Of a stretch of 64,000 bases of DNA, positions 972 through 32,861 are shown one piece after another. This stretch comes from Pseudomonadota bacterium (GTDB taxonomy: Bacteria > Pseudomonadota > Gammaproteobacteria > Burkholderiales > JAKAFK01), in assembly GCA_021788645.1 (NCBI GenBank), contig JAJYKK010000006.1:6022-70021 (forward strand). The letters run 5' to 3'. The stretch's first letter is position 1. Every line of letters starts with the position of its first letter. Under the pieces are notes generated by a model that was given only the letters and a program-made list of their open reading frames with translations, did no database searches and had not been told where the DNA came from. The translations under genes and the position numbers were made by a program.

Positions 972-1598
972 TTAAATGAACAGGCACACGTCGGAGGTCT
1001 GCGCGGTCGGCAGAAACGATGCCGCGCCCACATAGTCGGATACCTCTGGAATGAATTCGGAGCGATCGAAGCCAAACAGATCGACCGTCATCTGGCACGC
1101 GACGAATTTGACGTCCGCCTCGATGCACAGCGTCCGCAATTCCGCGATGTCGGCGACGCCGACGTTGCCGATGGTCTTCTTCATCAGCGTCGTCGCCAGC
1201 GCTTCATAGCCGGGAATCGCCGCCTGAACGATGTTGGGGATTTTCCAGTTGATGGCCCTAAACCATTTTGGTCCCATGGGCATCTTCATCGGCATGGCCG
1301 GGTTGCCTAAAGGGCTGACTTGCGCATCGAGGTTTTTTTTGAGCAGCGTCAATCCATAGAAGGTGAAGAAAATCGCCGTGTCCCACCCCAGCGCCGCCGC
1401 CGTCGACGCCAGAATGAAGGGCGGGTAGGCCCAGTCGAGCGTCCCTTTGGTTGCGATGATGGATAGCTTAGGGACCTTCTTCCCGTTGATCTCCGCGAGC
1501 TTGCGCTCCAGGATCTCGTCGAGCCGCTCCTCAAGACGCGCATCCACGAGCTGCTGGACGTCGAGGGGGGTCTGCATGGTTTCCGCGCGAGTGGTCAT
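972..1598 (-). CDS. DsrE/DsrF-like sulfur-relay family protein (COG2210 type)
   Basis: 208 aa ORF. The core KLSIIATKGTLDWAYPPFILASTAAALGWDTAIFFTFYGLTLLKK...VKFVACQMTVDLFG matches my memory of DsrE/DsrF-like 'peroxiredoxin family' proteins. Confidence 0.75.
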   Translation of the reverse strand: MTTRAETMQTPLDVQQLVDARLEERLDEILERKLAEINGKKVPKLSIIATKGTLDWAYPPFILASTAAALGWDTAIFFTFYGLTLLKKNLDAQVSPLGNPAMPMKMPMGPKWFRAINWKIPNIVQAAIPGYEALATTLMKKTIGNVGVADIAELRTLCIEADVKFVACQMTVDLFGFDRSEFIPEVSDYVGAASFLPTAQTSDVCLFI

Positions 1599-1744: not shown

Positions 1745-1760
1745 AGCAACATTTGTGCCA
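1745..1760 (-). promoter_or_regulatory. Sigma-54 (-24/-12) promoter candidate upstream of the DsrE-like gene
   Basis: The minus strand reads TGGCACAAATGTTGCT, a perfect match to TGGCAC-N5-TTGCW with GG-N10-GC spacing. It lies in an AT-rich intergenic region about 148 nt upstream of the ATG at 1598. Confidence 0.55.
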
Positions 1761-1956: not shown

Positions 1957-3180
1957 CTAGGGACGGCAGCCGGCGAGGAGGCTGAGCATTTGCTTCGCCA
2001 ACTGTTGGCGGTCGTAGCGCGGCGCCGCCGCGAGGCAACGCGCCCTGATGGCGCCGTAGAGCCGCGGATCGTCCATGAGCCTGGTCAGCGCGGCGTCAAG
2101 TGCGGGCGCATCGCCCGAGGGGAACACGATGCCGACGTTCTCGCGCTCGACGATGCCGGCCGATTCGCCGGGGACGCCATGCAACAAGGGGATGCCCATA
2201 CCCATCGATTCGAAGAGTTTCGACGGGATCACGGTGGAAAAAAGGGCGGTGTCCCGCAGATGAATGATGGACACGCTGAGGAGCGACCAGTACCGGGCGA
2301 CTTGCGCCTTCGGTACGGAATCGACGAAAACGACGTTGGCCAGTTGCCTGCGCTGTGCCTCGCGGACCAGATGCGCCTTGCGGGCGCCATCGCCCAGAAA
2401 GAGAAAACGCACATCGCTACGCCGCGCGCGCTGGAAGCGTTCGGCCACGTCCAGCACCGTCTCCAGCCCGTGGGCCATGCCATGGGTGCCGATGTACCCC
2501 GCCACGAAACACCCGGAAAGACCGAGCGATCGGGCGAGCGCTTCGTCGCGTGCGCGAGGTGCGAAACGGGTCAGATCGACGCCGTTGGTCACCACCTCGA
2601 TCTTGCGCCCGTCGATGCCGCGCGCCATGAGGCTGCGCTTGAACGAGTGCGTCACGGATACGATAAGATCCGCCTTCCGGTAGAGGAAACCTTCGATGCC
2701 CTCCAGTGCCCGAAACACGGCCGCGCTTCGCATCGCGCCTACCGCCCGGATCGATTCGGGCCACAGATCGCGCAGTTCAAACACGAACGGGACGCGCTTC
2801 ATGCGACTGACCAGATAGGCGGCGCATGCGGTGAAGAACTGGGGCGACGTGCCGATGACGATGTCAGGTTTTCTTACAAACAACGAGGCCACCGTGCCCG
2901 ACGCCATGAAGCTTGCATAATCGAGGCTGCGCCGCACGAATCCCTCGTTCGCGGTGATATAGCTCCACACGCGGATGACGCGTATGCCTTCCACGTTCTC
3001 CGACTGCCACAGGCGGTTGCGGTATCCCGGAAAGACCTTGCCCTTCGGGAAGTTGGGCGCGCAGGTGATGATGGTGACGCGATGCCCCGCCCTGACCCAC
3101 TCGCGGGCATGCTCGAAGGTCCGGGACGCCGGGGCATTGACCTCCGGGGGAAAATTGTCGGTCAGAAAGAGGATGTTCAC
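1957..3180 (-). CDS. Glycosyltransferase family 4 (WbuB-like)
   Basis: The track ORF 1957..3360 is trimmed to the GTG at 3180, which gives VNILFLTDNFPPEVNAPASRTFEHAREW..., the usual N-terminus of WbuB-type GT4 enzymes. This GTG overlaps the upstream gene's TGA (GTGA). Confidence 0.85.
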   Translation of the reverse strand: MNILFLTDNFPPEVNAPASRTFEHAREWVRAGHRVTIITCAPNFPKGKVFPGYRNRLWQSENVEGIRVIRVWSYITANEGFVRRSLDYASFMASGTVASLFVRKPDIVIGTSPQFFTACAAYLVSRMKRVPFVFELRDLWPESIRAVGAMRSAAVFRALEGIEGFLYRKADLIVSVTHSFKRSLMARGIDGRKIEVVTNGVDLTRFAPRARDEALARSLGLSGCFVAGYIGTHGMAHGLETVLDVAERFQRARRSDVRFLFLGDGARKAHLVREAQRRQLANVVFVDSVPKAQVARYWSLLSVSIIHLRDTALFSTVIPSKLFESMGMGIPLLHGVPGESAGIVERENVGIVFPSGDAPALDAALTRLMDDPRLYGAIRARCLAAAPRYDRQQLAKQMLSLLAGCRP

Positions 3181-4871
3181 TCGCGCCAGTCCAGCCTGAA
3201 CAGGGTCCGCTCGCCCCTCATGTGCGTCTCGATGCGCGTCGAGGGCAACGACAAGCCGAATTCCGGATGCCACCAAGCCGTCCTTAGCGAGACGTCGCCG
3301 CCCAGCGCTTGCCACCGCGCCCTCGCCCCCGCCGCCTGGACATGCCCGCCGCCAGGGCACTGCACGACGCTGGCCTCGGGATGCAGGTACAGACGGGAGA
3401 TGGCGCGCGCGGCGCGGCCTTCGATGCGATCCTCGATCTCCAGCCGCTCGGACTCGAGGAGCCAGCGTCGGCGATGAACCGGCCGCCCTCTCAGGCGGCG
3501 ATACCCATCGTGGGCCCCTTCGATGACGATACCCTTGGGCGATTGCGCCACCTCGACATCAAAGGGATATGCGCGCCTCGCCACGCGAAAGGACGCCCAC
3601 ACTTCGGAGGAACTCTGTCCGTCAAGCTCCACGGTATTATGGGCCGCCGTCGAGCGTTCCCACGCCCGCTGGGCGCCCCCGGCATAGCACGAGGTTCCTG
3701 AATTGACCAGCAGACGACGGCCATTCACCGACAGTTCGAAGCTCAGGACATCGGCGTGCGCATGCCCGGGAAGGTAATCGGGCCCGACCGGCGCCAAGTC
3801 CGCAATCAGCACGGCGCCGTGCTTCTGAACCCGTACATAACCCGACGCATTCAGCCACGAGACGCCATCGCCCTGCGCCGCGACGGGCACGCCGAGCCGT
3901 CGGGCATAGCGGATGAGTTCACCGGGCGATGCGGCAACGCCCATCGCCGCGTCGTTGAAGAACGAGATTTCTTCGTCCGGATGGCACATGGCGAGAAGCC
4001 AGCGCAACATGTCGGCCGCGGTGTCGCGCCAGAGCGCGATTTCTCGCGCCCAGCCGGCGAACGCGCCGGGCCCGGCGCACGCGAGATTCACGAGATCCAG
4101 CAGGTCTTCGAGCGCGATGGCGTGATACATGGGGCTGCGCTCGAAGTGCCCGCCATCCGAAAGAATCTGTTCCGGCACCTCGCGCATCAGAATCTCCATG
4201 CCCCGGCGCATCCAGCGATCGGCCTCCGGCCCGGCAAAGAACGCCCCGGCGAAGACCAGCGCCTTGGCGTTGGCGAACAGATGATTCCCCAGGAGATGGT
4301 ACTCGAGACGCCGCGTGAGATAGCGCGCCTGCCGCGCCAGGGAATGGGCCGCGTCCGGCGATAGCGCGTGGCCGCACGCCGCCCATTTCACCCAGTTGAC
4401 GATCCTGAGCGACACGGGATAAGGCTCCCACCCGACGCCCTTTCCAGGGGGATTCTCGGCAATCCAGCGGGCAATCAGCCGTTCATGCGCCGCCACCCTG
4501 CGCTCGGCGTCCGCAGCGTTCAGGTCGTCGAAATAATGCAGGTTGTAGAGCCAAAGCTTGGCTCGCCCCGGTGCATTCCAATGGCCGGGGCCTTCGAGGT
4601 CATGCTCCTCGTTCAGGAACCGGAAACGCGTCGCCGACACCATGGCCGCACGCCGCTGCGCGGGGCGCACCCAACCGCCGCGCAGGGGTCTTCGGGGCGG
4701 CGTCGGCCGCCCGTCCGAAACGGGGGCAACGAATCGCGACGACAACCGGCCCCAAATCTGAACGGGCCGCAAATACCGCAACGTGTGATAATAAAGGACG
4801 GATCGCCGCCAAAGGACCGCCGCTTCTCCTGGCCGTTCGGGCGACGCCGAGTCGCCACCCGGGCGCCTCAT
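3177..4871 (-). CDS. Heparinase II/III-like family protein
   Basis: 564 aa. The N-terminal YYHTLRYLRPVQI and the central HLLGNHLFANAKALVFAGAFF motif are typical of heparinase II/III-like proteins found in glycan clusters next to wecB. Its ATG overlaps the wecB stop (ATGA). Confidence 0.8.
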   Translation of the reverse strand: MRRPGGDSASPERPGEAAVLWRRSVLYYHTLRYLRPVQIWGRLSSRFVAPVSDGRPTPPRRPLRGGWVRPAQRRAAMVSATRFRFLNEEHDLEGPGHWNAPGRAKLWLYNLHYFDDLNAADAERRVAAHERLIARWIAENPPGKGVGWEPYPVSLRIVNWVKWAACGHALSPDAAHSLARQARYLTRRLEYHLLGNHLFANAKALVFAGAFFAGPEADRWMRRGMEILMREVPEQILSDGGHFERSPMYHAIALEDLLDLVNLACAGPGAFAGWAREIALWRDTAADMLRWLLAMCHPDEEISFFNDAAMGVAASPGELIRYARRLGVPVAAQGDGVSWLNASGYVRVQKHGAVLIADLAPVGPDYLPGHAHADVLSFELSVNGRRLLVNSGTSCYAGGAQRAWERSTAAHNTVELDGQSSSEVWASFRVARRAYPFDVEVAQSPKGIVIEGAHDGYRRLRGRPVHRRRWLLESERLEIEDRIEGRAARAISRLYLHPEASVVQCPGGGHVQAAGARARWQALGGDVSLRTAWWHPEFGLSLPSTRIETHMRGERTLFRLDWRE

Positions 4872-6023: not shown

Positions 6024-8162
6024 CTATCTTTCGGCTTGCGACAACGCGATGGCGACGCGGCTCACTTCAAGAAGCTCGTCAAACGGGATAGGCGCGTCGA
6101 TTCCGCCCCGCACCGCAGCCAAAAACGCGCTCGCACAAGCATGCTGACCCTTGTCCTGGCGCCACAGCCGCATGCGCGAGAAGCCGGGCCAGCCGAAGCC
6201 TCGCAAGACCCTGAAATTGTCGAGCTGGAGCACCCGCCCGCCGGCGAAGACCTCGATGCGCTCCTTAGGGAAGGACTTGGTGCCGTTCGCGAAGTAATGG
6301 ATGGTCCCGATCGAACCCTCGGCAAAGCGAAGCTGCAAGGTCACGGTATCTTGGGTTTGCGAGCGCATCCCCATGCGGCTCCAGGCGACGATCCGTTCCC
6401 CCGCAAGGTGGCGCAGGAGGTCGATGAAATGGCAGGCTTCGCCGATGATCCGCCCACCGCCCGTGGCGGCGTCCTGGGTCCAGTGATCCGGCGGGATGCG
6501 ACCGGCGTTCACCGTCGCCACCAAGGCCTTCGGGCCGGCCACCCCCCCGAGCAGCGCTTTCATGCGCGCCACGTGAGGGCTGAAGCGCCGATTGAAGCCC
6601 ACCAGCACGACGAGGGCGCCCGGACCGATGCCTTGCACCGAACACTCCGCCTCGATCTCCTTGAGCTCCTCCAGCGTCAGGCAGAGCGGCTTCTCGACGA
6701 ACACATGCTTGCCCGCGCGCAAGGCCGCCAAGATCCAGCGGGCATGGCTGTCGTGGCGCGTGGTAATCACGACCGCATCGACCAGACGATCGGACAGGGC
6801 GTGGAGCGTATCCGTGGTCGTTTCCTCGAAGCCGAACTTCCGGCCCGCGTGAAGCCCGCTCACGCCCGCGCTCGAGGCCACCACGCGAAAACGCGCGCCG
6901 GCCGCCTTGAACGCCGGAATGAGGGCGGCGCTCGCGTAGTTGCCCGCGCCGACGAAGGCCAGTGCGGGCGCGCGTCCCTGGGCGGGCGCAATGACGGTCA
7001 CGCCGGCCAAGGGCACCGTTTGCCGCCTGACTTCCCCATCCGTCCTGCCTTGCGTGTCGGGATATTGCAGCACGATCCCCAGCGAGAACTCACGGCCGCC
7101 CACCAAGGCATACGCCTTGACCGCCTCCTCGATGGAAAACCGATGGGAAATCAGGGGTTTTACGTCAAGACGCCCATCGGCCATCATGTCCAACACGGCT
7201 TCGAAGTTGCGACCCTCGGTCCAGCGGACAAAGCCGACCGGATAATCGTGTCCCTTCTCCTCGTAATTGGCGTCATAGCGCCCTGGCCCGTAAGAGCAGG
7301 AGACCTGGAAAGTAAGCTCCTTCTCGAAGAAGTCGGCACGAGAGAGCTCGAGTCCGGTGACGCCCACCAGCACGATGCGCCCGCGTTTGCGGCACATCGT
7401 CGCGGCCTGATGCACCGGCTCGCTGCTCTTGCTCGATGCCGTGATGATGACGGCATCTAGGCCGCGCCCGCGCGAGAAGCGCTCCGCCGCACCGAGCGGG
7501 TCTTCCCCCGCATGCAGATCCACCACCTCGGCACCGAATGCGCGCGCCAGTCCGAGCTTGCGGGGGTCGAAGTCCAGCCCCAGCACGCGGCATCCCTGCG
7601 CGCGAAGGAGCTGGACGGTCAAGAGCCCGATCAGGCCAAGGCCGGTCACCGCCACCGCCTCTCCCAGCGTCGGCTGCACCAGCCGAATGCCCTGCAAGGC
7701 AATGGCCGACAGCACCGTGAAGGCGGCCTCGTCGTCGCTCACGGCATCGGGCACCCGGGCGCACAGATTGTGCGGGACCCTGACCGCTTCGGCGTGCCGG
7801 CCGTTGGAGACCACCCGGTCGCCCGCGCGGAGCGCCGCCACATCGCCGCCGACCTCCATGACCCGGCCGACGTTGCAATAACCCAAGGGCAACGGCTGGT
7901 CCAGCTTGCTAAACACCGCCTCGACGGTCGGCATGAGGCCATCGGTGCCGATCTTGTCCAGGACCATGCGCACCTTGTCCGGCTGCTGCCTGGCCTTTTC
8001 GATCCAGTTGGCCTTGCCGAACTCCACCAGCATCCGCTCCGTGCCGGCCGACACCAGGGTCCGCGACGAGCGAATGAGCACCTGCCCGCGCGCGGCTCCC
8101 GGACAAGGCACCTCCGCCACTTCCGTCGCGCCGGTTCTAAGACTCTGCAAGATTTGCTTCAA
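6024..8162 (-). CDS. Bi-domain oxidoreductase (Zn-dependent alcohol dehydrogenase-like domain plus Gfo/Idh/MocA domain)
   Basis: The track ORF 6024..8330 is trimmed to the TTG at 8162, preceded by GGAGG, giving LKQILQSLRTGATEVAEVPCP, the usual N-terminus of this family. An alternative ATG is at 8213. An MDR-type domain is followed by a Gfo/Idh/MocA fold (ALAFVGAGNYA..., HVFVEKP). Confidence 0.82.
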   Translation of the reverse strand: MKQILQSLRTGATEVAEVPCPGAARGQVLIRSSRTLVSAGTERMLVEFGKANWIEKARQQPDKVRMVLDKIGTDGLMPTVEAVFSKLDQPLPLGYCNVGRVMEVGGDVAALRAGDRVVSNGRHAEAVRVPHNLCARVPDAVSDDEAAFTVLSAIALQGIRLVQPTLGEAVAVTGLGLIGLLTVQLLRAQGCRVLGLDFDPRKLGLARAFGAEVVDLHAGEDPLGAAERFSRGRGLDAVIITASSKSSEPVHQAATMCRKRGRIVLVGVTGLELSRADFFEKELTFQVSCSYGPGRYDANYEEKGHDYPVGFVRWTEGRNFEAVLDMMADGRLDVKPLISHRFSIEEAVKAYALVGGREFSLGIVLQYPDTQGRTDGEVRRQTVPLAGVTVIAPAQGRAPALAFVGAGNYASAALIPAFKAAGARFRVVASSAGVSGLHAGRKFGFEETTTDTLHALSDRLVDAVVITTRHDSHARWILAALRAGKHVFVEKPLCLTLEELKEIEAECSVQGIGPGALVVLVGFNRRFSPHVARMKALLGGVAGPKALVATVNAGRIPPDHWTQDAATGGGRIIGEACHFIDLLRHLAGERIVAWSRMGMRSQTQDTVTLQLRFAEGSIGTIHYFANGTKSFPKERIEVFAGGRVLQLDNFRVLRGFGWPGFSRMRLWRQDKGQHACASAFLAAVRGGIDAPIPFDELLEVSRVAIALSQAER

Positions 8163-8462
8163 GTATCCTCCCGCTCGAACAACGCACCCCAGGGGGCGGT
8201 CGTGGGCGAACATCGATTGGAAAATTCGCCACGCCGCCGCGATCCTTCCCGTTATAGATGATTTTTCTGGTCTTCTCCCCGCCTCCGCGCAGGTCACGGC
8301 CGCTTCCGAGGCGACGCGTCCGGACGGCAAATGGGCCGCGCCGGGCGGTGCGGCTCGCTCGAGTGTTCGGCAGACCGGCCACGCCCAGCGGCGTCGATTT
8401 TTTTTACACCGCAGCGCCCGCCCTACAGGCTAACGCCCCGCCGATCCGCGCGTTAGAACGAC

Positions 8463-8478
8463 GGGCCCGGTTCTTGCT
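8463..8478 (+). promoter_or_regulatory. Sigma-54-like -24/-12 promoter candidate for cargo gene 1
   Basis: GGGCCCGGTTCTTGCT has correct GG-N10-GC spacing and a TTGCT -12 element. There are two mismatches in the -24 half. The GC lies 76 nt upstream of the ATG at 8553. It shares the 8-mer TTCTTGCT with the promoter at 9608. Confidence 0.45.
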
Positions 8479-8552: not shown

Positions 8553-9302
8553 ATGACGAAAGGATGGCCCGGAACGAAGCGGATATGGACGATCGCCCTG
8601 ATGTGTGCGGCTATGGGAGGCGGGGCACAGGCCCAAGGGTCAACCGCCCTAGGCGTCGACCCGATCCTGAACTTCAATTTCAATGGCAGCTTCAGCATGT
8701 ATGATTCGACCGGCGCATTGGTGGGCGGGGACAGCACGCTGTCCGGAAGCATACAACTGGACACCGCCACCTTCGGCGGGACAGCCACCATGGCGGATCC
8801 GTCGCCGTTTTTCGGCTCCCACTGGTACGCGCACGATATTCAGATCTCGGCCACGCCTGACCTCGCCAACGGGAGTTTCCTGGCGAATTCCCACATGCTG
8901 TTCGACTGGGGGCCGGCGACAACGGCGAGTGCCTGCGGGCTTGCGGTCTGCGATTACAGCATCTACACCCAATTCCAGATTGCGCCTGCCGTCAATTTGA
9001 CCCTCGCGTCGTGGACCAGCCTCACAAGCGGGGTTCCGTTCAGCGTCACCACCACCGACGCAGACGGCGACGGGATTCCGGGAAACCAAATCACGTACGG
9101 GCCATTCAAGGGGTTCTCGCCCGCGTTCGGGGGTACCGCCACGTTTAAAAATCTCGGCCTAGGCTACATCGCCAACAACAACATCCCCGCCGTCGATCCT
9201 ACTCCCCTGCCGGGCACCGCCTTGCTCCTCGGGTCTGGGCTCCTGGGCCTCGTGGGTCTCGCACGCAGCCGCAAGAACCCGCCCCACCGAGCACGCGCAT
9301 AG
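8553..9302 (+). CDS. Secreted protein with exosortase-type C-terminal sorting domain (PEP-CTERM/VPLPA-CTERM-like)
   Basis: 249 aa. It has an N-terminal signal peptide (WTIALMCAAMGGGAQAQG) and a Gly/Ser/Thr/Asn-rich body. The C-terminus is ...VDPTPLPGTALLLGSGLLGLVGLARSRK. Confidence 0.85.
   Translation: MTKGWPGTKRIWTIALMCAAMGGGAQAQGSTALGVDPILNFNFNGSFSMYDSTGALVGGDSTLSGSIQLDTATFGGTATMADPSPFFGSHWYAHDIQISATPDLANGSFLANSHMLFDWGPATTASACGLAVCDYSIYTQFQIAPAVNLTLASWTSLTSGVPFSVTTTDADGDGIPGNQITYGPFKGFSPAFGGTATFKNLGLGYIANNNIPAVDPTPLPGTALLLGSGLLGLVGLARSRKNPPHRARA
9192..9299 (+). other. C-terminal sorting signal (P-L-P motif, TM helix, basic cluster)
   Basis: VDPTPLPGTALLLGSGLLGLVGLARSRKNPPHRARA has the tripartite exosortase-substrate architecture, but the canonical Glu of P-E-P is absent. 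Confidence 0.8.
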
Positions 9303-9607
9303 CCCCGGGCGGGGTGCGTGTAGCCCGCCGCAATGCGCCCTCCGCGCTCCCCATTTTTCCTTCCGCCGGGGCACGCCCCTCGGCGCCGCCCGCAGGGCGC
9401 GCGCGCTGTCGAACACCGCCGTTCTCCCTGCGGCGGATTGGACGCCTCTGCTCTTTATTTTCCGCGCCCTCGCTTGGCCCTAGACCCATGCGACGACAGA
9501 GGCCCTAATAACAATGCCGTATACATACTGTCGGCGTTTTTTACACAATCGATCGTCATCACCAGAATCACTATATCAATACTCTCTAAATCAGCCAGAT
9601 AGGTAGG

Positions 9608-9623
9608 TGGCATTCTTCTTGCT
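9608..9623 (+). promoter_or_regulatory. Sigma-54 (-24/-12) promoter candidate for cargo gene 2
   Basis: TGGCATTCTTCTTGCT matches TGGCA...TTGCT with exact GG-N10-GC spacing. It lies at the end of an AT-rich tract, 88 nt upstream of the ATG at 9710. Confidence 0.6.
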
Positions 9624-9709
9624 AATCGTATAGCCGCCGCTTTGTCACGGCACCGTTAGGCCGCGCCAATGCGGTCGTAGGGATCACCACTAGAGAACTG
9701 GAGAGCGCA

Positions 9710-10405
9710 ATGATCAGAGAATGGATGGCAACGAGAGGACGTTGGGAGGCGATGGCGATGGTCGGTTTGTGCCTATGCGCGGCTCGCGCGCATGCATCGT
9801 CGAATTTCGACCCCGCCCTCCTCGGGCCTGGCTTTTTCGGTTCGCGGGCGGTGACCGAATGGCACGGCCAGGGCCGCCGGGCCCTCGCCCACTGGGACAT
9901 GTTCTCCGACGGTCTCGGCTTCCGTGCGGGGTCTCAAGTCACGGGCAGAAGGGCTTACGACCTGCGGCGCATCGCCATGCGCGCGCGCAATGGGGCCCTC
10001 CCGCACGACGGGCGCGGCTTGTTTAGGCGGTGGACGCTGTGGACTGCCTCATGCCTCGGCGGAGAGTGCCTGTCGCGCGACGACACGCGAACCGGAACCG
10101 CCTCGTGGCGCGCGGGGGACCTCACGCCATGGGACGGCTTACCTGACGGTCCACGCTTCTCGTTCCGCCTGGGACCGAGGCGATGGGACCGCCTGGCGGA
10201 TGATCCGTTTGCGCGCCCCCCAGTCCGTTGGCTCGTCCCGGCAGGGGCGAGCGGCCGGCTCACGGTCGCACTCGTGAGGCTGGACCGGATCGCAGACCGC
10301 TCACCTTCCGTCGCTCCGGCCCCAATCCCCGCGCCTGTGACGCTATTGGGGTCCGGACTCCTCGGGCTGGTCGGCTTCGCGCGCCGGCGTCCGCCCCGCC
10401 TGTAG
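9710..10405 (+). CDS. Secreted Arg/Trp-rich protein with exosortase-type C-terminal sorting domain
   Basis: 231 aa. A signal peptide (MAMVGLCLCAARAHA) and the C-terminal ...APIPAPVTLLGSGLLGLVGFARRRPPRL are in the same frame. GGAGAG lies 8 nt before the ATG. Alternative in-frame ATGs are at 9725 and 9752. Confidence 0.7.
   Translation: MIREWMATRGRWEAMAMVGLCLCAARAHASSNFDPALLGPGFFGSRAVTEWHGQGRRALAHWDMFSDGLGFRAGSQVTGRRAYDLRRIAMRARNGALPHDGRGLFRRWTLWTASCLGGECLSRDDTRTGTASWRAGDLTPWDGLPDGPRFSFRLGPRRWDRLADDPFARPPVRWLVPAGASGRLTVALVRLDRIADRSPSVAPAPIPAPVTLLGSGLLGLVGFARRRPPRL
10313..10402 (+). other. C-terminal sorting signal (I-P-A-P motif, TM helix, Arg cluster)
   Basis: In APAPIPAPVTLLGSGLLGLVGFARRRPPRL, the helix LLGSGLLGLVG-[LF]-AR is nearly identical to that of cargo 1. 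Confidence 0.75.
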
Positions 10406-10596: not shown

Positions 10597-11334
10597 TCAC
10601 CCTGGCACAGGCACGGGAAGCCTCTCGATTTTCCGGCAGGCGAACACGACGAGACTGTCCGCATAGCGCGCGAACCCAAGCATTCGCATGGCGGCGCCGA
10701 ACCACCCGATGGCGCCGTAGAAGCGGGTGTCCAACACCTCTAGGGAATGTCGGGCGAGGACGCCTTTGAAGGCCGTCTCTCCGGTGATGGTCTTGACACA
10801 CCCGTAATACCTGGGGACCCCAAACCAGCGGTAAGCCCATCGCTCCACTCGCCTGTAGAGGCTCTGCGCATTGGGCATCGAGACCAGCAATACGCCCCCG
10901 GGTTTCAGCGACGACGAGATGAAATGCAGGTCACGGTCGAGCCGGCCGGAATATTCCAGCACGCTCGAGCACAGCAGCAGGTCCACGAGGGGCAACCCTA
11001 AGGCTGGCGCCTCTTCGAGGGTCGAATGCACAAAGCGGATATTGTTCAGGCGTTCCTGCTCCGCCTTCCGGGTGGCAAGAGCAAGCATCTGGTCGCTGCC
11101 ATCGAGGGCAATGACCTGGGCGCCTCTCTTCGCGGCATAGGTCGCGAAGATCCCGCTGCCGCAGCCCAGATCGAGCACGACATGGTCTCGGGCGCCGAAG
11201 CGATCGATAAGCGCCGTCCACAGCGCATAACGCTCCCGAAATGCGGGGCTTCCCCGGTATTTCGCATCGAAGGCCGAAGCGATGTCGGAGTGCCACTGGA
11301 TCGCGTCGCGGCTGGCGAGCGTCTTGGCGGTCAT
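10597..11334 (-). CDS. Class I SAM-dependent methyltransferase
   Basis: The track ORF is trimmed to the ATG at 11334 (MTAKTLASRD...). The SAM motif VLDLGCGSGIFATYAAKRGAQVIALDGS is present. The gene lies directly downstream of the TPR gene. Confidence 0.8.
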   Translation of the reverse strand: MTAKTLASRDAIQWHSDIASAFDAKYRGSPAFRERYALWTALIDRFGARDHVVLDLGCGSGIFATYAAKRGAQVIALDGSDQMLALATRKAEQERLNNIRFVHSTLEEAPALGLPLVDLLLCSSVLEYSGRLDRDLHFISSSLKPGGVLLVSMPNAQSLYRRVERWAYRWFGVPRYYGCVKTITGETAFKGVLARHSLEVLDTRFYGAIGWFGAAMRMLGFARYADSLVVFACRKIERLPVPVPG

Positions 11335-11344
11335 GGGCGGATCC

Positions 11345-13726
11345 TCATAGGTGCGCCAGCAGCGCCTTGGCCTGCGCCGCGCCCGGAAACTGCGCGCCGT
11401 CGGCAAGGGCCGCGCGCAAGTGCGCTTTGGCCCTTGTTCGGTTGCCTGCGTCGTAATAGGCAAGCCCCAGGTGGTACTGAAAAACAGGAATCTTCGGCGC
11501 CGCCGCGACGGAACGCTGGAGGAGCGCAATGGCGCGTCCGTACTGTCCCATCTTCACATAGACCCAGCCCAGCGTGTCCACGAAACCCGCATTGCCGCTG
11601 TTCTGGAAGGGCGCGGCGAGCGCCAGCGCTTGACGCAGGCTTGCGGGATCTCCCTTGGCACGGGTAAGGAGAGAGGCAAGATTATTGGCCGCCAGCTGGT
11701 CGCCTGGGAAACGCCGGAGTATGCCTTCGTACGCCCGTATCGCCTGAGCGCTCTGTCCGGCCGCGCCATAGGCCTGAGCAAGCGACATCGACAACGCGGG
11801 ATTGTCCGGTTGTACGCGCAACCCTTGCTCGAGAATGGCGATCGCATCGGTCATGCGTCCCTCACCCGCATCAAGCTGCGCGAGCGCCTGATAGGGTGCC
11901 GGCGTGCGCGGGCTCAACGCCATCGCGTGGCGCAGGGCCGCCTGGGATGCCGCAAACTGCTTGTCCGCCATTTCGAGCATGCCGATCAGTTCGTAATGGC
12001 GCGCGCTCTTCGGCACGACGCGAATCGCTTGCGCGACGCGCGCGATGGCTTGCCGGGCGTGCCCCTGCGCCAGCAGAATCCGGGTCAGCGCCGCCAGCGG
12101 GGGAAAGGCGCCGGGATCTTGCTGCAGCGCGAGGGCAAAGGCCGAAAGCGCCCGATCCGGCTCCTGGCGCTGCGCATAAAATATGCCCAGCTGATAGTTG
12201 CCGACGTAGGCCGCAGGATGCGCATTCCGCCAGCCAACAAGGGCCCGCTCGGCGGCGTCGAAGTCCTTCTCGCCCACCAGCAGGGCGGTCTTCTTCTGAA
12301 AAACGCCGAGATTGTCCGGTTCGTTCTTGAGGACCGCATTCAGCTGCGCGAGGGCGCCTCGGTAATGCTTCGTCGCCTCAAGAAAGTCGGCCATCGCGAT
12401 CCGGATGGCGGCATCGTCGGGATAGGCTGCGAGGGCGTTGGTAAAGACCGCCTGGGCGAGCTGCGGATCGCCGTTGGCCAGATGGGCCTTGGCCAGCAGC
12501 AGGAGGACCTCAGGCGAGTTCGGTTCCTCCTTCAAAACCGATCGGAAATCGTCCACCGCGTCCAGCGCATCGTCATGGGCCAGCCGCATCTCGCCTTGCA
12601 GCAGCAGCGCATCGACATTGCCCGCGTCGTGCGCGAGAACCGCCTTGAGGAGCTTGTCAGCCTGCGCGCGCTTCCCTTGCGCATTCTCCAGGCCGGCAAG
12701 CAGGGTCGATGCCTTAAGCCCGGCCGGTCCGTCGCCGTCGGCGTGAATGACGCGCTGCAACGCCGCTTGCGCCTCGTCGGGCCGCCCCATCTGCTGGTAG
12801 AGGCTCGCCAGGGCGAAGCTCAGCTCATAGACCTTGGGGTGCGTGTCCGCCACGCCGGCCAGCATTCGCGCGGCGGCCGGCAGGCCCTCCCGGGCCCCCA
12901 GGAAGGATGTCAGCAGGAGGTAGGGCTGCGGGTCGTCAGGCGTCTGCGCGATGGCCTGCCGGAGGGTGGCTTCCGCCCGAGCCGGGTGCGCGGTGCGGGC
13001 ATAGAAGGCGGCGAGGGCCGCGCGATACGGCAGCTCCTTCGGGGCGATGGCAATCGCCGCCCGATAGGCCTGCTCGGCCTGAGCCCATTGTCCGGCGCTC
13101 CCCGCCACCAGCGCGTAGTCCTCGCGCAGCGCGGCATCTCGCGGGCTCGCCTTGATCCCCATCGCGAGCACCGCCTCGGCGCGCGACGTATCGTGTGCTT
13201 CGCCATAGAGTTGGGCGAGCAGAACCACGGCGTCGGACTCGGCCGGATCCTGCCCGACCACTTGGGCAAGCTCCCGGATCGCGGCCGCGGCATTCCCCTG
13301 GCGCACCGCCACGGCCGCATCGAGCGTATGCCCTGCGGGATCGGCCGGTCGCGCGCGCAAGACGGCCTTGGCGAGCCGGGCGGCGTGGGCCGAGTCACCG
13401 GCGAACAGGTAGAGCTCGCCCAGGCGCACCTCGGCCTTGATGTCGCCGGGGTCGAGCTCGACCGCCTTGCGGTAGTCCGCGAAGGCCAGCGGCCAGTCCT
13501 GCTCGGCTTGCGCGACCCGCCCCGAGTAGTAGAAGCCTGCCACGCTCTTGGGGTCGATTTGCAGCACGTTTTCGAATTCCACCCGCGCCTTGCCATACTG
13601 GTGGCGGGCATAGAAGGCCTCGCCTCTTTTCAGATGCGCCGCCTCGCTCATGCCCCTCCCGCACCCCGCGAGCACCGCACACCCCAGCAACGCGAGAACA
13701 ACCCCCTTAGGCGCCAAGTTTCTCAT
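11345..13726 (-). CDS. prsT: TPR-repeat lipoprotein, PEP-CTERM-system PrsT-like
   Basis: The ORF is trimmed to the ATG at 13726, preceded by GGAGGG. The N-terminus MRNLAPKGVVLALLGCAVLAGC carries a lipobox. About 790 aa of tandem TPR-like repeats follow. It is adjacent to the exosortase, as expected for the PrsT family (TIGR02917, from memory). Confidence 0.78.
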   Translation of the reverse strand: MRNLAPKGVVLALLGCAVLAGCGRGMSEAAHLKRGEAFYARHQYGKARVEFENVLQIDPKSVAGFYYSGRVAQAEQDWPLAFADYRKAVELDPGDIKAEVRLGELYLFAGDSAHAARLAKAVLRARPADPAGHTLDAAVAVRQGNAAAAIRELAQVVGQDPAESDAVVLLAQLYGEAHDTSRAEAVLAMGIKASPRDAALREDYALVAGSAGQWAQAEQAYRAAIAIAPKELPYRAALAAFYARTAHPARAEATLRQAIAQTPDDPQPYLLLTSFLGAREGLPAAARMLAGVADTHPKVYELSFALASLYQQMGRPDEAQAALQRVIHADGDGPAGLKASTLLAGLENAQGKRAQADKLLKAVLAHDAGNVDALLLQGEMRLAHDDALDAVDDFRSVLKEEPNSPEVLLLLAKAHLANGDPQLAQAVFTNALAAYPDDAAIRIAMADFLEATKHYRGALAQLNAVLKNEPDNLGVFQKKTALLVGEKDFDAAERALVGWRNAHPAAYVGNYQLGIFYAQRQEPDRALSAFALALQQDPGAFPPLAALTRILLAQGHARQAIARVAQAIRVVPKSARHYELIGMLEMADKQFAASQAALRHAMALSPRTPAPYQALAQLDAGEGRMTDAIAILEQGLRVQPDNPALSMSLAQAYGAAGQSAQAIRAYEGILRRFPGDQLAANNLASLLTRAKGDPASLRQALALAAPFQNSGNAGFVDTLGWVYVKMGQYGRAIALLQRSVAAAPKIPVFQYHLGLAYYDAGNRTRAKAHLRAALADGAQFPGAAQAKALLAHL

Positions 13727-13798
13727 CCACTGCCCTCCATTATTGTTTCCATCCCGATGTCCAGCCGTTGCACGCGGCGTCCCCGAAAACACGCCTCG

Positions 13799-15436
13799 TC
13801 AGCTGGACAGCACCCATCTGGCGACCACGGCAAGAAGCGTGACATAGGACACCAGTCGCAAGCAGTCCCACCGGCGCCAGAGGTGGTTCAAGACCAATTC
13901 GACTCCATAGAACAACACGATCGCCTTGGCGACGGCGGCCCCCAAATGAATGCGGCTGCCATGCAAGGCAGGCAGGTTGGGAACCGCCAAGGCCAGGAAG
14001 ATCACCAGGAAATCGAGCGGAGTGACCTGGAAGCGGCCCTCGCTGGAAAAGCGAAAGCCCACCATGATCGCCGCCGCCAGCATGGCCATGTAGATGTTCT
14101 CGTACAACGCCATGTGGGCAAAGTCCCCGCCCGTCTGCCGGAGGTGGACCACCAGCACGCACGTGACATAGAGCACCGCACGCTCGATGGCGCCAAACGG
14201 CTGTCGCCGCTGCCGCGGATAAAGAAAAAGCGAAACCGCCCCCAGGGCGGCAGCAAGCCCACCCATGCCGGCCGACACGGGAGCGGCCTGGGCGACGGCG
14301 AGGAGGAAGTAGCCCGGGATCGTGAAGGCCGCGAAGAAGAACGCATAATTGGCTAATCGCCTTCGCTGTCCCGGCCACCGGCCGTTGCGCGCAAGGAAGG
14401 ATGCGGGCGGACGCCCGCCGGGCGGACGGGCCCGCCAACGCGCGCTCGCCGCCCATTGGAAGAAGAGGAGGACGCCGGCGCAGAACCCGACATAGGTTCC
14501 GACGATGAGCGAATCCGGGTCATCGCGCAGGAAGAGCGCGGCGACGACCAGCAGCGCCTGCGCCACATAGATCAGGAAAACCGCCTCATAATGGTCGAAT
14601 CCCAGGGCCAGCAGCTGATGGTGAATGTGCCGCTTGTCGGGCGAGAAGGGTGATTTGCCATCGCAGATGCGCAGCACCATCACCATCAGCGTGTCGAGGA
14701 TGGGCAAGCCCAGCAGCATCGCGGGAATGGCGGGGCTCAAGGGCGTGTCAGGCCGCTGCGTGAGAAGAATGGCCAGGACTCCCGTGGAAAAGCCCAGAAA
14801 CTGGCTCCCGCCGTCGCCCATGAAGATGCGCGCCGGATAGGTGTTGAAGCGCAGGAAGCCCAGAATGCTGCCCATGACCGCAAGCGCCACCACCATCAGG
14901 GCATAGGCGTCCACGATATAGGCGAGCGCGGCCACCGCCATCAGGCTGAGCAAGGTGGTTCCGCCGGCCAGCCCATCGAGGCCATCGGCGAGATTGATGG
15001 CGTTGGTAATCCCGAGGAGCGCGAACACGGTCAAGGGAATGGAGACGTAGGCGGGCAACCTCGAGGATTCCATGAACGGCACCGAATGGATCGCCACGCC
15101 GCCATGCACGACGACGATCAGGATGGCGATCAGCTGCCCGAGAAACTTGACCCGGTAGTCGAGGTTCTTGCGATCATCCCAGACCCCGAAGGCCAGGATG
15201 ATCGCGGTGCCCCACAGGTAGGCACTGACCGCCCGGGATGCGGCGAGCCAGAGGGCGACGGGCAGCACGGCGCCGACCGCCATCGCCAGGCCCCCGATGC
15301 GCGGGATCGGCCGCGTGTGGACCTTCCGCTCGTCCGGCACATCGACGAACTGCAGCCACTCTGCCGAGCGCATCAGGGGAGGGATCAACGCCATGGTGAC
15401 GAACATGGCGCTGAGGAAGCTGGCGAAATAAATCAC
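13799..15436 (-). CDS. WecA/MraY-family polyprenyl-phosphate HexNAc-1-phosphate transferase with extra C-terminal membrane domain
   Basis: 545 aa. VDVPDERKVHTRPIPRIGGLAMA...GVWDDRKNLDYRVKFLGQ...NAINLADGLDGLAGG are GT4 (MraY/WecA) motifs. About 190 additional hydrophobic residues follow the usual end of the domain. Confidence 0.85.
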   Translation of the reverse strand: MIYFASFLSAMFVTMALIPPLMRSAEWLQFVDVPDERKVHTRPIPRIGGLAMAVGAVLPVALWLAASRAVSAYLWGTAIILAFGVWDDRKNLDYRVKFLGQLIAILIVVVHGGVAIHSVPFMESSRLPAYVSIPLTVFALLGITNAINLADGLDGLAGGTTLLSLMAVAALAYIVDAYALMVVALAVMGSILGFLRFNTYPARIFMGDGGSQFLGFSTGVLAILLTQRPDTPLSPAIPAMLLGLPILDTLMVMVLRICDGKSPFSPDKRHIHHQLLALGFDHYEAVFLIYVAQALLVVAALFLRDDPDSLIVGTYVGFCAGVLLFFQWAASARWRARPPGGRPPASFLARNGRWPGQRRRLANYAFFFAAFTIPGYFLLAVAQAAPVSAGMGGLAAALGAVSLFLYPRQRRQPFGAIERAVLYVTCVLVVHLRQTGGDFAHMALYENIYMAMLAAAIMVGFRFSSEGRFQVTPLDFLVIFLALAVPNLPALHGSRIHLGAAVAKAIVLFYGVELVLNHLWRRWDCLRLVSYVTLLAVVARWVLSS

Positions 15437-15446
15437 CGCGGGCGCC

Positions 15447-17033
15447 TTAGTTCGGGACGTAGCTGGTCAGGCGCGGAACGGCGGCCCGCGCAAAACTGCT
15501 CAGGATCCGGTCGGCACGGCTGGGCGATTCGCCGGGCGAAAGTTCAGTGGTCAGGCGAACCAGCGCGCCGTCGGTGCGGTTTTGCCGGAGCGCATCCCAC
15601 AGCAGGTACCATTTCGCCAGGTATTCATTGGTAATGATCCTCCCCCGCTCCTGGAACCAGTAATACACAAGCTCCTTGACGTTGCCCTTGGCGATGACCA
15701 GACGATTCACGCGTAGCGGGTGTCCATTGACCCGCACGCCGCGCACCGCTCTTTGCGTCAGGCTCGTGATCTCCCAGCCGCCCCCGGGGATGCAGGTGCG
15801 CGGCGAGTGCGCCGACGCGCCTTTGCGCTGAGAGGCATAATAGGCCACATAGAAATTGACCACCTTGCGCGCCGTGCCGACATAATCGGCCAACAGGTAG
15901 TCCGTGAACTTGAGCTGCTTGATATAGATGTCGGCCATCTGTCCGCCGTGCCCTTGCCAGCCCGGAAGGTGCATCGGGAAGGTCGCAAAGTCTTGTCGCT
16001 TAGGCGTGACTTCGGCCCGCTTGGGGAGCGCGGTGGTGGCCAAAGCGACCAGGGCGAGGAGCCCCACCGCGACCAAATAGGAGGTGGGTAGCCGTCTGAC
16101 GCGGGCGCCGCGCGCGCGGGCACCGCGCGGCCACTCCAGCCCAAACACTTCGGCCAGATGCCGCCTGTCTCTGCCCACGCGGGCCATGACCCACATCTCC
16201 CCCACCAGGAGCGCCGTGCAGATCATGAAGATCACCCATCCCTCGAAAAGATGGAGAAAGCCCTCCGCCATCGCGCGGCCCCACCAGTCGACCGTCACGC
16301 CCACCAAGCCGATCCGGAAACTGTTCATCAGCACGGTCATGGGCACGGTGGAGACAAACACCAGCGCCCGTTTCCAGAGCGGCGCCTGAAACAGATAGGC
16401 CGCCACGAACCCCAGGGTCATCAGCGGAAACAGGTAGCGCAACCCGCTGCAGGCGTCGACCACCTGCAATTTGAGGCTGCCGAGATCGATGACGTTGCCG
16501 GCAAGATAGACGCTGTCCCCGAACGCCCGGATGAAGTCCACCCCCAACCGGGAGGACAACAGCTCGAGCTGCTCGGAGAGATTGTTGTAAAGGAAATTCG
16601 GCAGCGGAATCATCAGCCCCAGGATCAGCACGGGAATGCCGATCACCCGGAAGGCCCGCGGCCCCATGAAGGCCAGCGTCACGCCTGCCAGCACGACGAG
16701 AAAGGCGTATTGCACCAGAATGTACAGGGCGGACAGCTGCCCTGCGCCATACACCAGGGCGCCCAGCAGCACCACCGCGACACCCATCCAGGACCCGTCG
16801 AACGGCAAGCGCGCGAGGCGGTCCGACCGCTGCCAGACCAGGAACAGCGCAATCAATGGGATCAAGGGACCGTAACTGTATTCCGCGTGCGCTGGACTGA
16901 ACCACCATTGCACCATGACCGCGAGCCCGGCGTGGAAGACGCTCGCGAGAAGAAGCGCGGCCAGGGCCATGGAAGCCCATGCCGCGACCGACAGTTTCCA
17001 AAGGCTGGGTTCGTGTCCGCTCGCCACATCCAT
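15447..17033 (-). CDS. Exosortase fused to an EpsI-family domain
   Basis: 528 aa. Exosortase signature residues appear in VVDACSGLRYLF (Cys), LMNSFRIGL (Arg) and FLHLFEGW (His). The C-terminal ~200 aa carry the EpsI motif HSPRTCIPGGGW. Confidence 0.9.
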   Translation of the reverse strand: MDVASGHEPSLWKLSVAAWASMALAALLLASVFHAGLAVMVQWWFSPAHAEYSYGPLIPLIALFLVWQRSDRLARLPFDGSWMGVAVVLLGALVYGAGQLSALYILVQYAFLVVLAGVTLAFMGPRAFRVIGIPVLILGLMIPLPNFLYNNLSEQLELLSSRLGVDFIRAFGDSVYLAGNVIDLGSLKLQVVDACSGLRYLFPLMTLGFVAAYLFQAPLWKRALVFVSTVPMTVLMNSFRIGLVGVTVDWWGRAMAEGFLHLFEGWVIFMICTALLVGEMWVMARVGRDRRHLAEVFGLEWPRGARARGARVRRLPTSYLVAVGLLALVALATTALPKRAEVTPKRQDFATFPMHLPGWQGHGGQMADIYIKQLKFTDYLLADYVGTARKVVNFYVAYYASQRKGASAHSPRTCIPGGGWEITSLTQRAVRGVRVNGHPLRVNRLVIAKGNVKELVYYWFQERGRIITNEYLAKWYLLWDALRQNRTDGALVRLTTELSPGESPSRADRILSSFARAAVPRLTSYVPN

Positions 17034-19040: not shown

Positions 19041-19835
19041 CTAGGCACAGACCCATGACCCGTCCGGCTCATAGCCCAGTCTGATCAGGTTGTGGCCGGC
19101 GTACTGGTGAAACAGCTCGCGCGCCTCCTTCGAAAATTTGTTCTTCCAGTCCCCGGCCGTGCCCTTTCTCAGGAAGCTGCCTTTGACTTCCGTGCCGGCG
19201 CGTCTGCCGGCCACTGCCTGAAAGCAAAACCGCGCCTTCGCGCCTTCGAGCCGCGCGAGGTCGGCCGCACGCCCCGTCACCCGCTCGATCGGCTCCTTGA
19301 GCGCCGCCGCCGCGTCTTCCAGGAGATGTTCGTACTTGACCATCACGGCGCGGGGCCGGTCCGCCCAGGAGTCAATGAACTCATTCCAATTGAAATGAAA
19401 CAGCCGCCTGTTTTCGACGGTGAACAGATACTCGATCACGCGCGGCAGGTTGGCCTCCACATCCTCGTAGTCCCGGAATCGATTCTGCTTGCGCGCGCGC
19501 TCGACCAGGAGGGGAGAATTCTTTTCGTTGTGAAAGAACATGTGGTAGTACGCCGACACCATCACGTCCCGCCCGTCGCGAACGACGCAGAAGACGTTCC
19601 TCATGAGGGGCGAATAGAGGCTGTGGCAATGCATGATGCAACTCTCTATCCTGGGTGCGCAATTGCGCGGAAACGGCACGTCGAAGTAATGGGCCAGCAT
19701 CTGTCCGACCCATGTCCCGCCGGACTTGGGATATTCGGTCACGATATAAAGCGGCAAGACGTGGGACAACGTATGCTTCATGACCATGCGCTGAAGCGCG
19801 TCCATCTTGATGGCGAAACGAGGCCGATGATCCAC
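19041..19835 (-). CDS. PAPS-dependent sulfotransferase-domain protein
   Basis: It contains the 5'-PSB loop YPKSGGTW, the 3'-PB region VVRDGRDVMVSAYY, and the C-terminal FLRKGTAGDWKNKF characteristic of sulfotransferase domains. The start is uncertain, with in-frame ATGs at 19835, 19805, 19784 and 19778. Confidence 0.8.
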   Translation of the reverse strand: MDHRPRFAIKMDALQRMVMKHTLSHVLPLYIVTEYPKSGGTWVGQMLAHYFDVPFPRNCAPRIESCIMHCHSLYSPLMRNVFCVVRDGRDVMVSAYYHMFFHNEKNSPLLVERARKQNRFRDYEDVEANLPRVIEYLFTVENRRLFHFNWNEFIDSWADRPRAVMVKYEHLLEDAAAALKEPIERVTGRAADLARLEGAKARFCFQAVAGRRAGTEVKGSFLRKGTAGDWKNKFSKEARELFHQYAGHNLIRLGYEPDGSWVCA

Positions 19836-29277: not shown

Positions 29278-29279
29278 CG

Positions 29280-30152
29280 CTATGGGCGGGCGCCCGCCAC
29301 GGCGTTCGGCTCGTCGATGCGGGCAGGCGCCTCGCGCAACGGGAAAAGTCCGCCCTTGAGCTTGTCTTGCGCCACCAGATGAATGAGACCGGCGTCGATG
29401 CCCGGCCGCTGCTCGGCGAATCCGTAAACCAGGGCCGTGTCGCACAGCAGATTGATGAGGCGCGGGACGCCTTGGCTATACCCGAACGTTGCGGCGATCG
29501 CCGCATCGTCAAACATGGCCGGATCGCCGCCCACCAGGCCCAGCCGATGGCGGATGTAGGTCGCCGTCTCCTCCGCGTCCAAGGCCTCGAGGTGGTAATC
29601 GACGGCAATGCGCTGGGCGAATTGCAGGAGATCCGGTCGGCGCAGCATCTCGCGCAACTGGACCTGCCCCACGAGAATCACCTGCAGCACGAGTCCCTTG
29701 TCCGCATTCACGTTGGAGAGCATGCGAAGCTCTTCGAGGGTCTCCGGCAGCATGTTTTGCGCCTCGTCGACGATGAGCAGCGCCCGATGCCCGCGCGCCG
29801 ACTGCGCCGCAAGGAAGTCGAGAAACGTGTGGAGCATTTCCGTGCTGTCGCGGCCGCGATAGTCCAGCCGGAAGGCAAACAGGATGCGGGGGAGCAACTC
29901 GGCATAGGTACGCGGCGTATGCGAGACGAGCCCGACCGCCGTCCCGTGCGCGACCTGCCCGAGCAGATGCCGGACCAGCGTGGTCTTTCCGGTCCCGATC
30001 CCGCCCGTGATCACATTGAAGCCCGCCTGGTTCATGAGCCCGTATTCAAGGAGATCCATGCCCAGCCGGTGCTTCCTGCTGAAGTACAGAAAACCGGGAT
30101 CCGGATGGATGGAAAAGGGCTTTTCGCGAAATCCGTAGAACGCCTCGTACAT
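29280..30152 (-). CDS. ExeA/GspA-like AAA ATPase, PEP-CTERM-locus subfamily
   Basis: 290 aa. MYEAFYGFREKPFSIHPDPGFLYFSRKH...ITGGIGTGKTTLVRHL...LLIVDEAQNM has Walker A and B motifs intact. Confidence 0.85.
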   Translation of the reverse strand: MYEAFYGFREKPFSIHPDPGFLYFSRKHRLGMDLLEYGLMNQAGFNVITGGIGTGKTTLVRHLLGQVAHGTAVGLVSHTPRTYAELLPRILFAFRLDYRGRDSTEMLHTFLDFLAAQSARGHRALLIVDEAQNMLPETLEELRMLSNVNADKGLVLQVILVGQVQLREMLRRPDLLQFAQRIAVDYHLEALDAEETATYIRHRLGLVGGDPAMFDDAAIAATFGYSQGVPRLINLLCDTALVYGFAEQRPGIDAGLIHLVAQDKLKGGLFPLREAPARIDEPNAVAGARP

Positions 30153-32767: not shown

Positions 32768-32861
32768 TGTTCTTGTATCCTCTTGAGCGCATGACACGTG
32801 AGACTGCTTGCAAAGACCATGACCCCGCGGGAGCGGCTACTCGCCAAGGCGTGCCGGCCGT

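Follow-up and report, generated by a model that had tools for sequence, protein, structure and literature searches.

Two adjoining genes in a 64-kb stretch of contig JAJYKK010000006.1 from a Pseudomonadota bacterium (hereafter the window) encode secreted proteins, cargo 1 and cargo 2, whose C-termini resemble exosortase sorting signals that are without the Glu of the canonical P-E-P motif. Which sorting enzyme would handle such proteins? The first-pass annotation of this DNA took the tails to be VPLPA-like and the surrounding accessory genes to be an XrtA-type set, and proposed either a hybrid system or an undescribed motif variant. The data presented here argue against both proposals. Judged from its sequence, the locus appears to be a typical XrtD/VPLPA-CTERM exosortase and exopolysaccharide (EPS) locus, with two cargo genes that are putatively controlled by sigma-54. 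Very probably, the two genes encode XrtD substrates and the locus lies within the described XrtD/VPLPA-CTERM branch of exosortases.

The exosortase at the locus

The only exosortase at the locus is encoded at 15447–17033 on the minus strand. It matched the model for XrtD, the VPLPA-CTERM-specific exosortase (TIGR04152), with 547.2 bits (cut-off 400), and has a fused EpsI domain (residues 350–525). The same open reading frame (ORF) scored 161.4 bits on the XrtA model TIGR03109, below the cut-off of 208, and did not pass its second-best model, XrtW (300 bits, cut-off 425). Cys195, Arg240 and His261 were invariant across 41 homologs. By these model scores, the exosortase of the locus is XrtD, not XrtA. 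The best identity to this XrtD among the genome contigs searched was 55%, and the species of the window was not recovered there.

The cargo genes lie 5–8 kb from the XrtD gene, in an arrangement that is syntenic in a sister betaproteobacterial metagenome-assembled genome (MAG; GCA_028064455.1, L003 in our set). The pairing of XrtD with VPLPA-CTERM proteins, stated in the first-pass annotation, agrees with the name of the curated model TIGR04152; our search of the literature on XrtD/VPLPA-CTERM found no more than one incidental mention. The missing Glu is what defines this subclass, in which an aliphatic residue replaces the Glu of P-E-P. The first-pass annotation had not recognised the enzyme as XrtD, next to which VPLPA-like cargo is just what one would expect.

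Two cargo proteins with a common sorting tail

The two cargo ORFs, at 8553–9302 (249 aa) and 9710–10405 (231 aa), are both on the plus strand. Independent gene calls on a matching 78-kb metagenome contig (k141_1278437 of ENA ERZ27233565) gave identical products of 249 and 231 residues, so the pair of adjoining genes described earlier is real. Both N-termini have a basic n-region and a hydrophobic core, followed by AQA/Q or AHA/S. This Sec-signal-peptide-like layout is conserved in the orthologs and in the family alignment, in keeping with the signal peptides that were predicted earlier.

The C-termini are as alike as had been claimed. They have an 11-residue core, LLGSGLLGLVG, in common, and P-E-P is absent from both. 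Cargo 1 ends in ...TPLPGTALLLGSGLLGLVGLARSRK(NPPHRARA) and cargo 2 in ...APAPIPAPVTLLGSGLLGLVGFARRR(PPRL); longer C-terminal reads are ...VDPTPLPGTALLLGSGLLGLVGLARSRKNPPHRARA and ...VAPAPIPAPVTLLGSGLLGLVGFARRRPPRL, respectively. MAFFT aligned the two tails without gaps as P-x-V-x-P-x-P-[LI]-P...LLGSG, and a profile of the cargo 1 family matched the cargo 2 tail with a probability of 96.7% (E = 3.5e-10, hhalign). In a six-frame scan of the 64 kb, these were the only two credible tails of this type. The tripartite C-terminal signal is present, with P-[aliphatic]-P abutting a transmembrane helix that is followed by a basic cluster. P2, P4, the aliphatic residue at position 3 and L9-L10-G11-S12 match columns that are invariant or nearly so in 55 reference tails. 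The two tails deviate at motif positions 1 and 5–7, and have 4–8 extra residues beyond the basic cluster.

Although the core peptide is identical in the two proteins, the DNA that encodes it is identical at just 23 of 33 positions, which argues that the tail peptide is maintained by selection. The same low DNA identity rules out recent gene conversion between the tails. We also rejected tandem duplication followed by divergence as the origin of the two genes, because the profile–profile alignment spans the 30-residue tail only. GC content at third codon positions is 0.78 in both cargo genes, like that of the neighbouring genes.

Cargo 1 (8553–9302, plus strand) encodes a beta-rich secreted protein that belongs to a VPLPA-CTERM protein family. 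Its sorting tail, T217-PLPGTALLLGSGLLGLVGLARSR-K241 (9201–9275, plus strand), consists of a TPLPG motif, a transmembrane helix and a basic cluster, and aligned to positions 2–25 of the VPLPA-CTERM model TIGR03370. In register it reads T-P-L-P-G-T-A-L-LLGS, with a spacing of 4 from P-L-P to the core. The invariant P2 and P4 are retained, as are an aliphatic residue at position 3 and the L9-L10-G11-S12 core. The residues at positions 1, 5 and 6 deviate, and Trp8 is absent. A homolog search with cargo 1 returned 42 proteins, two of which were near-identical orthologs. The remaining proteins (40/40) end in [VIT]-P-[VLI]-P-[AP]-A-[AV]-W, mostly as VPVPAA[AV]WLLGSGLLGLVGVARRK. Representative members of this group pass TIGR03370 at 30–32 bits (cut-off 25.35), which upholds the earlier view that the tails are VPLPA-like rather than PEP-like, and one carries the NCBI name VPLPA-CTERM. 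The cargo 1 ortholog, like the two window tails, is below the threshold of this model.

The ratio of nonsynonymous to synonymous substitution rates (dN/dS) of cargo 1 relative to its ortholog was 0.17, indicating purifying selection. Structure prediction gave a confident all-beta model with a C-terminal helix (predicted local distance difference test score, pLDDT, 82). Comparison of this model with the PDB returned no significant match; its best plausible resemblance may be to surface-protein barrels of the TbpB/fHbp type (E 0.07, TM score 0.32, not significant). Ser, Thr, Gly and Asn are abundant in cargo 1, which contains no Glu (0/249) and includes the stretch DADGDGIPGN.

Motif register in cargo 2

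Cargo 2 (9710–10405, plus strand) encodes a secreted protein that is rich in Arg and Trp, carries a VPLPA-type tail and is restricted to its lineage. Its composition is 15% Arg, 0 Lys and 4% Trp, with a GC content at second codon positions of 0.63 in the passenger part, and its structure prediction was unusable (pLDDT 28). Just one homolog was found, in the sister MAG (57% identity). The cargo 2 sorting tail is A204-PIPAPVTLLGSGLLGLVGFARR-R227 (10319–10390, plus strand), and that of the ortholog reads ...VPIPEPLTLLGSG...

The first-pass annotation had parsed the motif of cargo 2 as I-P-A-P. This parse is out of register, as shown by the spacing to the core and by the alignments. Among tails that share the core, the distance from P-x-P to LLGSG is 4 residues in every P-[LVI]-P tail (134/134) and every P-E-P tail (21/21), a uniformity that is partly built in, as the reference tails were picked for their likeness to the query. 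P-I-P alone has a spacing of 4 in cargo 2 and in its ortholog, where P-A-P or P-E-P is at a spacing of 2. MAFFT, the TIGR03370 alignment and hhalign all agree on the P-I-P register. By spacing and alignment, the in-register motif is thus A204-P-I-P-A208 for cargo 2 and V-P-I-P-E for its sister-MAG ortholog, whose Glu is out of register, at position 5. The difference arises at codon 208 (10331–10333), which is GCG (Ala) in the window and GAG (Glu) in the sister MAG, one base apart.

The dN/dS of cargo 2 relative to its ortholog varied along the protein, from 1.46 (residues 30–120) through 0.50 (residues 121–195) to 0.08 in the tail, the last being that of XrtD itself. The sorting tail is therefore the most constrained part of cargo 2, which argues for a functional signal. 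At residues 30–120, a surface protein may be under diversifying selection, or the passenger may be almost free of constraint.

XrtD loci in other genomes

To place the two tails, we used 80 XrtD-like loci from named genomes, of which 46 were long loci, and sought tails in flanks of ±10 kb. Fourteen loci contained a total of 15 tails, each with V, I or L between its prolines (15/15) and none with P-E-P (0/15). All 16 exosortases tested (the 14 beside tails, that of the window and that of the sister MAG) matched the XrtD model alone at E <= 1e-110. Trp8 is missing from 6 of the 15 XrtD-adjacent tails (for example VPLPAALPLL..., VPLPASASLAL... and IPLPSSVIMLG...). A TPLPG tail, as in cargo 1, adjoins XrtD at L068, and a Glu at position 5 is found beside XrtD at L067 (SPVPE). 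Several XrtD-adjacent tails fail TIGR03370; those that failed or were missed include SPVPELQIW... (L067:14027–14452, minus strand), TPLPGAIW... (L068:17949–18542, plus strand) and VPVPAAFW... (L083:15749–16498, plus strand). By comparison with this set, the two window tails are mildly degenerate, within the spread of tails seen beside XrtD.

The 120 database tails nearest to the profile of the window tails comprised 96 with P-[LVI]-P and 21 with P-E-P. The databases contain scattered Trp-less near-twins of the window tails, PVPIPGTLILLGSGLLGL being an example. The tail-profile search of the protein database returned short proteins or fragments only, none of them attributable to this genome.

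The accessory genes of the window also recur beside XrtD. Among the 46 long loci, a PrsT-like gene lay downstream of XrtD in 39, and in 32 the gene immediately downstream was WecA-like. The order XrtD, WecA-like, PrsT-like on one strand was found in 40/80 loci, many of the others being incomplete. At least three genes of the export set lay within 10 kb of XrtD in 11 loci; this count is a lower bound, since the export module of the window itself is more than 12 kb from XrtD. All five genes in the order of the window (exporter, barrel, chain-length, kinase, ATPase) were found in MAGs from three phyla, of Methylococcales (L061), Nitrospira (L070) and Verrucomicrobia (L083). Two XrtD-like proteins, P0053 (955 aa) and P0110 (837 aa), are fusions with approximately 330–430 extra N-terminal residues before the exosortase domain.

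Regulatory elements upstream of the cargo genes

Haft 2006 described two motifs upstream of proteobacterial PEP-CTERM genes (PMC1569441). Motif 1 is 17 nt long and has TTTACA at its end; motif 2, a sigma-54 −24/−12 motif (−24GG/−12GC), follows after 62.8 ± 10.6 nt and lies approximately 71 nt before the start codon. This upstream region is tied phylogenetically to PrsK, PrsR and PrsT (PMC1569441), and RpoN dependence was shown for a PEP-CTERM gene of Aquincola (PMC9850573).

Matches to both motifs precede each cargo gene. For cargo 1, motif 1, a putative PrsR-type enhancer site (CGTCGATTTTTTTTACA, 8392–8408, plus strand, with TTTACA at 8403–8408), is followed after a 54-nt spacer by a sigma-54-like −24/−12 element (GGGCCCGGTTCTTGCT, 8463–8478, plus strand) that lies 74 nt before the ATG. 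For cargo 2, motif 1 (TGTCGGCGTTTTTTACA, 9529–9545, plus strand, with TTTACA at 9540–9545) is followed after 62 nt by a sigma-54-like element (TGGCATTCTTCTTGCT, 9608–9623, plus strand) with one mismatch to the consensus, 86 nt before the ATG. TTTACA occurs five times in the whole window, and the composite TTTACA-N33-93-GG-N8-TTGC occurs exactly twice, once per cargo gene. All four elements are kept in the sister MAG, in intergenic DNA that is 77–84% identical. The sigma-54 site of cargo 1 is inside a 17-nt block that is identical there, and TGGCAT-N5-TTGCT of cargo 2 is likewise kept.

The plain sigma-54 consensus was not enriched across the window (25 found, 28.7 expected). The credibility of the two sites therefore rests on their position, their conservation and the composite. 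There was a single sigma-70-like match, and it shares positions with the TTTACA motif upstream of cargo 2. Of the window ORFs that were scanned against NCBIfam, none was identified as PrsK or PrsR, an Rfam scan of the window returned no RNA family, and a terminator scan near the cargo genes gave no excess over shuffled controls. A perfect sigma-54 consensus, TGGCACAAATGTTGCT, without TTTACA, is found at 1745–1760 (minus strand), approximately 147 nt upstream of a DrsE_2-like ORF (972–1598, minus strand).

Accessory and neighbouring genes

The genes between cargo 2 and XrtD, all on the minus strand, encode a class I S-adenosylmethionine methyltransferase (10597–11334), a PrsT-like TPR protein (11345–13792, with gene calls starting at 13726) and a WecA/MraY-family polyprenyl-phosphate sugar-phosphate transferase (13799–15436), which adjoins XrtD. 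Synteny of all three with XrtD and both cargo genes is kept in the sister MAG. The export module, also on the minus strand, lies further along the window. It contains an XrtA-system-like ExeA-like ATPase (29280–30152; TIGR03015 278 bits, below 324.5), a tyrosine autokinase (30156–31004; TIGR03018 180, below 230.65), a polysaccharide chain-length determinant (31019–32797; TIGR03007 252, below 278.85), a putative outer-membrane beta-barrel (32862–34112; weak Pfam hints of SlipAM and Omp85) and a Wza-like polysaccharide export protein (34213–34830; TIGR03027 149.6, below 180). A homolog of the barrel is found at the same position of the module in L061, L070, L076, L078 and L083. Next to the ATPase is a TIGR03790 family protein (27967–29445, minus strand; 244.7 bits, cut-off 67).

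Genes for GspN (35222–36037) and GspL (36531–38558) of type II secretion abut the EPS export module, and further large minus-strand ORFs, putatively also of type II secretion, run on to approximately 45.7 kb. The EPS cluster also includes a heparinase II/III-like gene (3177–4871), a sulfotransferase gene (19041–19835) and a gene for a 985-aa LamG/GH123_N-like protein (25029–27986), all on the minus strand. Such a gene content may point to a polysaccharide that is sulfated and resembles heparosan. The gene immediately before cargo 1 (6024–8330, minus strand) encodes a fusion of a zinc-type alcohol dehydrogenase and a Gfo/Idh/MocA oxidoreductase (712–768 aa), which is kept in the sister MAG.

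Weighing the alternative explanations

Several observations weigh against the assignment of the two proteins to XrtD. Neither cargo reaches the cut-off of any NCBIfam or Pfam sorting-signal model. On TIGR03370, cargo 1 scored 11.1 bits and cargo 2 14.5 bits (14.8 and 19.7 for the tails alone). On the PEP-CTERM model TIGR02595 (cut-off 16), cargo 1 gave no hit and cargo 2 scored 11.9 (tails alone, 12.5 and 15.7), and on Pfam PF07589 (cut-off 20.7) cargo 1 scored 15.3 and cargo 2 gave no hit (tails alone, 20.5 and 14.1). Both tails are without the Trp8 that is found in 40/40 distant relatives of cargo 1. The cargo 2 ortholog of the sister MAG narrowly passes TIGR02595 (17.7 bits) and bears the NCBI name PEP-CTERM. 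A second exosortase, such as XrtA, may be encoded outside the 64 kb. The evidence that XrtD would process the two proteins is adjacency and co-occurrence, and we know of no biochemical demonstration of exosortase cleavage in the XrtD/VPLPA-CTERM subclass.

The first-pass annotation had proposed this comparison of the VPLPA-CTERM and PEP-CTERM hidden Markov models (HMMs), and held that tails passing the PEP-CTERM model alone would tell against it. No model called either tail, and the HMM scores by themselves settle nothing. The tails escape the curated HMMs because position 1 is T or A, position 5 is G and Trp8 is missing. The tails also hit the C-terminus of the floc_PepA model weakly (15–20 bits, cut-off 80), with no homology beyond the tail.

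What, then, of the two explanations that were offered at the outset? That XrtA-type machinery serves VPLPA-like cargo is very improbable. The PrsT-like protein does narrowly pass the XrtA/PEP-CTERM model TIGR02917 (317.2 bits, cut-off 312.2), XrtA-system models are the best hits of the ATPase, kinase, chain-length and exporter genes, and a classical PEP-CTERM sigma-54/TTTACA site lies upstream of the cargo genes. However, the sole exosortase at the locus is XrtD and fails the XrtA cut-off, the accessory models other than PrsT (4/5) are below their equivalog cut-offs, and XrtD has PrsT-like, WecA-like and export-module genes as its neighbours in dozens of other genomes across phyla. The accessory genes are XrtA-like, and their recurrence marks a normal XrtD locus and not a chimera. 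A new signal subclass, in which a Trp-less [T/A]-P-[L/I]-P-[G/A]-x-x-x-LLGSG motif has its own specificity and has co-evolved with the XrtD of this lineage, is improbable. The sub-threshold scores of both tails and of the cargo 1 ortholog would fit it, as would the loss of W8 from a position so uniform in distant relatives, and the variant is kept between two MAG lineages under purifying selection. Yet this XrtD is canonical and scores high (547 bits), XrtD is adjoined by Trp-less and TPLPG tails elsewhere, and near-identical tails are dispersed across databases. As other genuine XrtD-adjacent tails fail the cut-off, the low scores point to a strict HMM rather than to a new class. Of the undescribed variant, what stands is that both tails fall below both cut-offs; the invariant positions are intact and similar tails are found elsewhere, against a variant of its own kind.

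The remaining alternatives concern cargo 2, whose proline ladder P-x-P-x-P-x-P holds two overlapping registers, the distal one of which becomes P-E-P by a change from GCG to GAG. Cargo 2 might be a PEP-CTERM-type (I-P-[E/A]-P) substrate of a second exosortase that has lost its Glu through a GAG-to-GCG change, an idea that derives from the IPEP, the TIGR02595 score and the NCBI name of the sister ortholog. We give it scarcely any credence: its spacing to the core would be 2, compared to 4 in all 21 PEP tails with the same core, the correctly spaced P-I-P is kept in both orthologs, the XrtD-adjacent tail of L067 also has Glu at position 5, and both lineages keep the gene in synteny with XrtD. 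It is also quite improbable that the tails lie at the boundary between VPLPA-CTERM and PEP-CTERM, with a point mutation re-routing a protein between exosortases, or that XrtD is much more permissive than the name of its model suggests and needs only P-[aliphatic]-P at a fixed spacing. Assignment of both proteins to XrtD thus remains the preferred reading.

A proposed route for the cargo proteins

On this XrtD reading, each cargo gene would be an operon of its own behind a TTTACA enhancer and a sigma-54 promoter, and the DNA motifs suggest that a PrsR-type activator could turn the cargo genes on with the EPS programme. The precursors would be exported by Sec through their N-terminal signal peptides. 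The LLGSGLLGLVG helix and the cytoplasmic Arg/Lys cluster would then hold each precursor in the inner membrane, where XrtD would recognise x-P-[L/I]-P-x, the motif next to the helix. By analogy, the Cys-Arg-His centre of XrtD would cut at the motif and pass the protein to an acceptor. This acceptor is probably linked to the exopolysaccharide that the products of the neighbouring genes (glycosyltransferase, flippase, chain-length, kinase and exporter) would make and export. We infer all of these steps, from Sec export and XrtD cleavage to attachment and PrsR control.

Comparison with known systems

The locus leaves the understanding of exosortases unchanged, and its main value is for annotation: the two XrtD-linked cargo proteins here, and several elsewhere, fall under the VPLPA-CTERM cut-off. 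The data suggest that TIGR03370 under-calls Trp-less tails. In the sister MAG, the cargo 2 ortholog was labelled PEP-CTERM through an out-of-register match. XrtD loci share a PrsT-like gene, a WecA-like gene and an export module (and, in the window, the TTTACA and sigma-54 motifs) with XrtA systems, so the neighbourhood alone cannot separate the two.

Compared with the XrtD/VPLPA-CTERM system (TIGR04152, TIGR03370), the window is alike in an exosortase that passes the XrtD model and is fused to EpsI, in cargo with a signal peptide, x-P-[LVI]-P-x, a Gly/Leu-rich helix and a basic cluster, in the homology of cargo 1 to proteins that pass the VPLPA-CTERM model, and in the order of XrtD, WecA-like and PrsT-like genes. 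It differs in that its tails, TPLPG and APIPA, are without Trp8 and below TIGR03370, and automated annotation would miss them. Similar to the XrtA/PEP-CTERM system (PMC1569441), it has single-gene cargo operons with large upstream regions and TTTACA and sigma-54 motifs, together with a PrsT TPR protein, an ExeA-like ATPase, a tyrosine kinase, a chain-length determinant and an exporter. In contrast to that system, its exosortase is not XrtA, its cargo has P-x-P without Glu, and its accessory proteins, the marginal PrsT excepted, are under the equivalog cut-offs. The PepA-type floc-forming proteins of Zoogloea and Aquincola (PMC9850573) are likewise small and secreted, with an RpoN-type promoter and a position near prsT in an EPS locus, but the window cargo is homologous to them in the tail only, with weak hits to floc_PepA.

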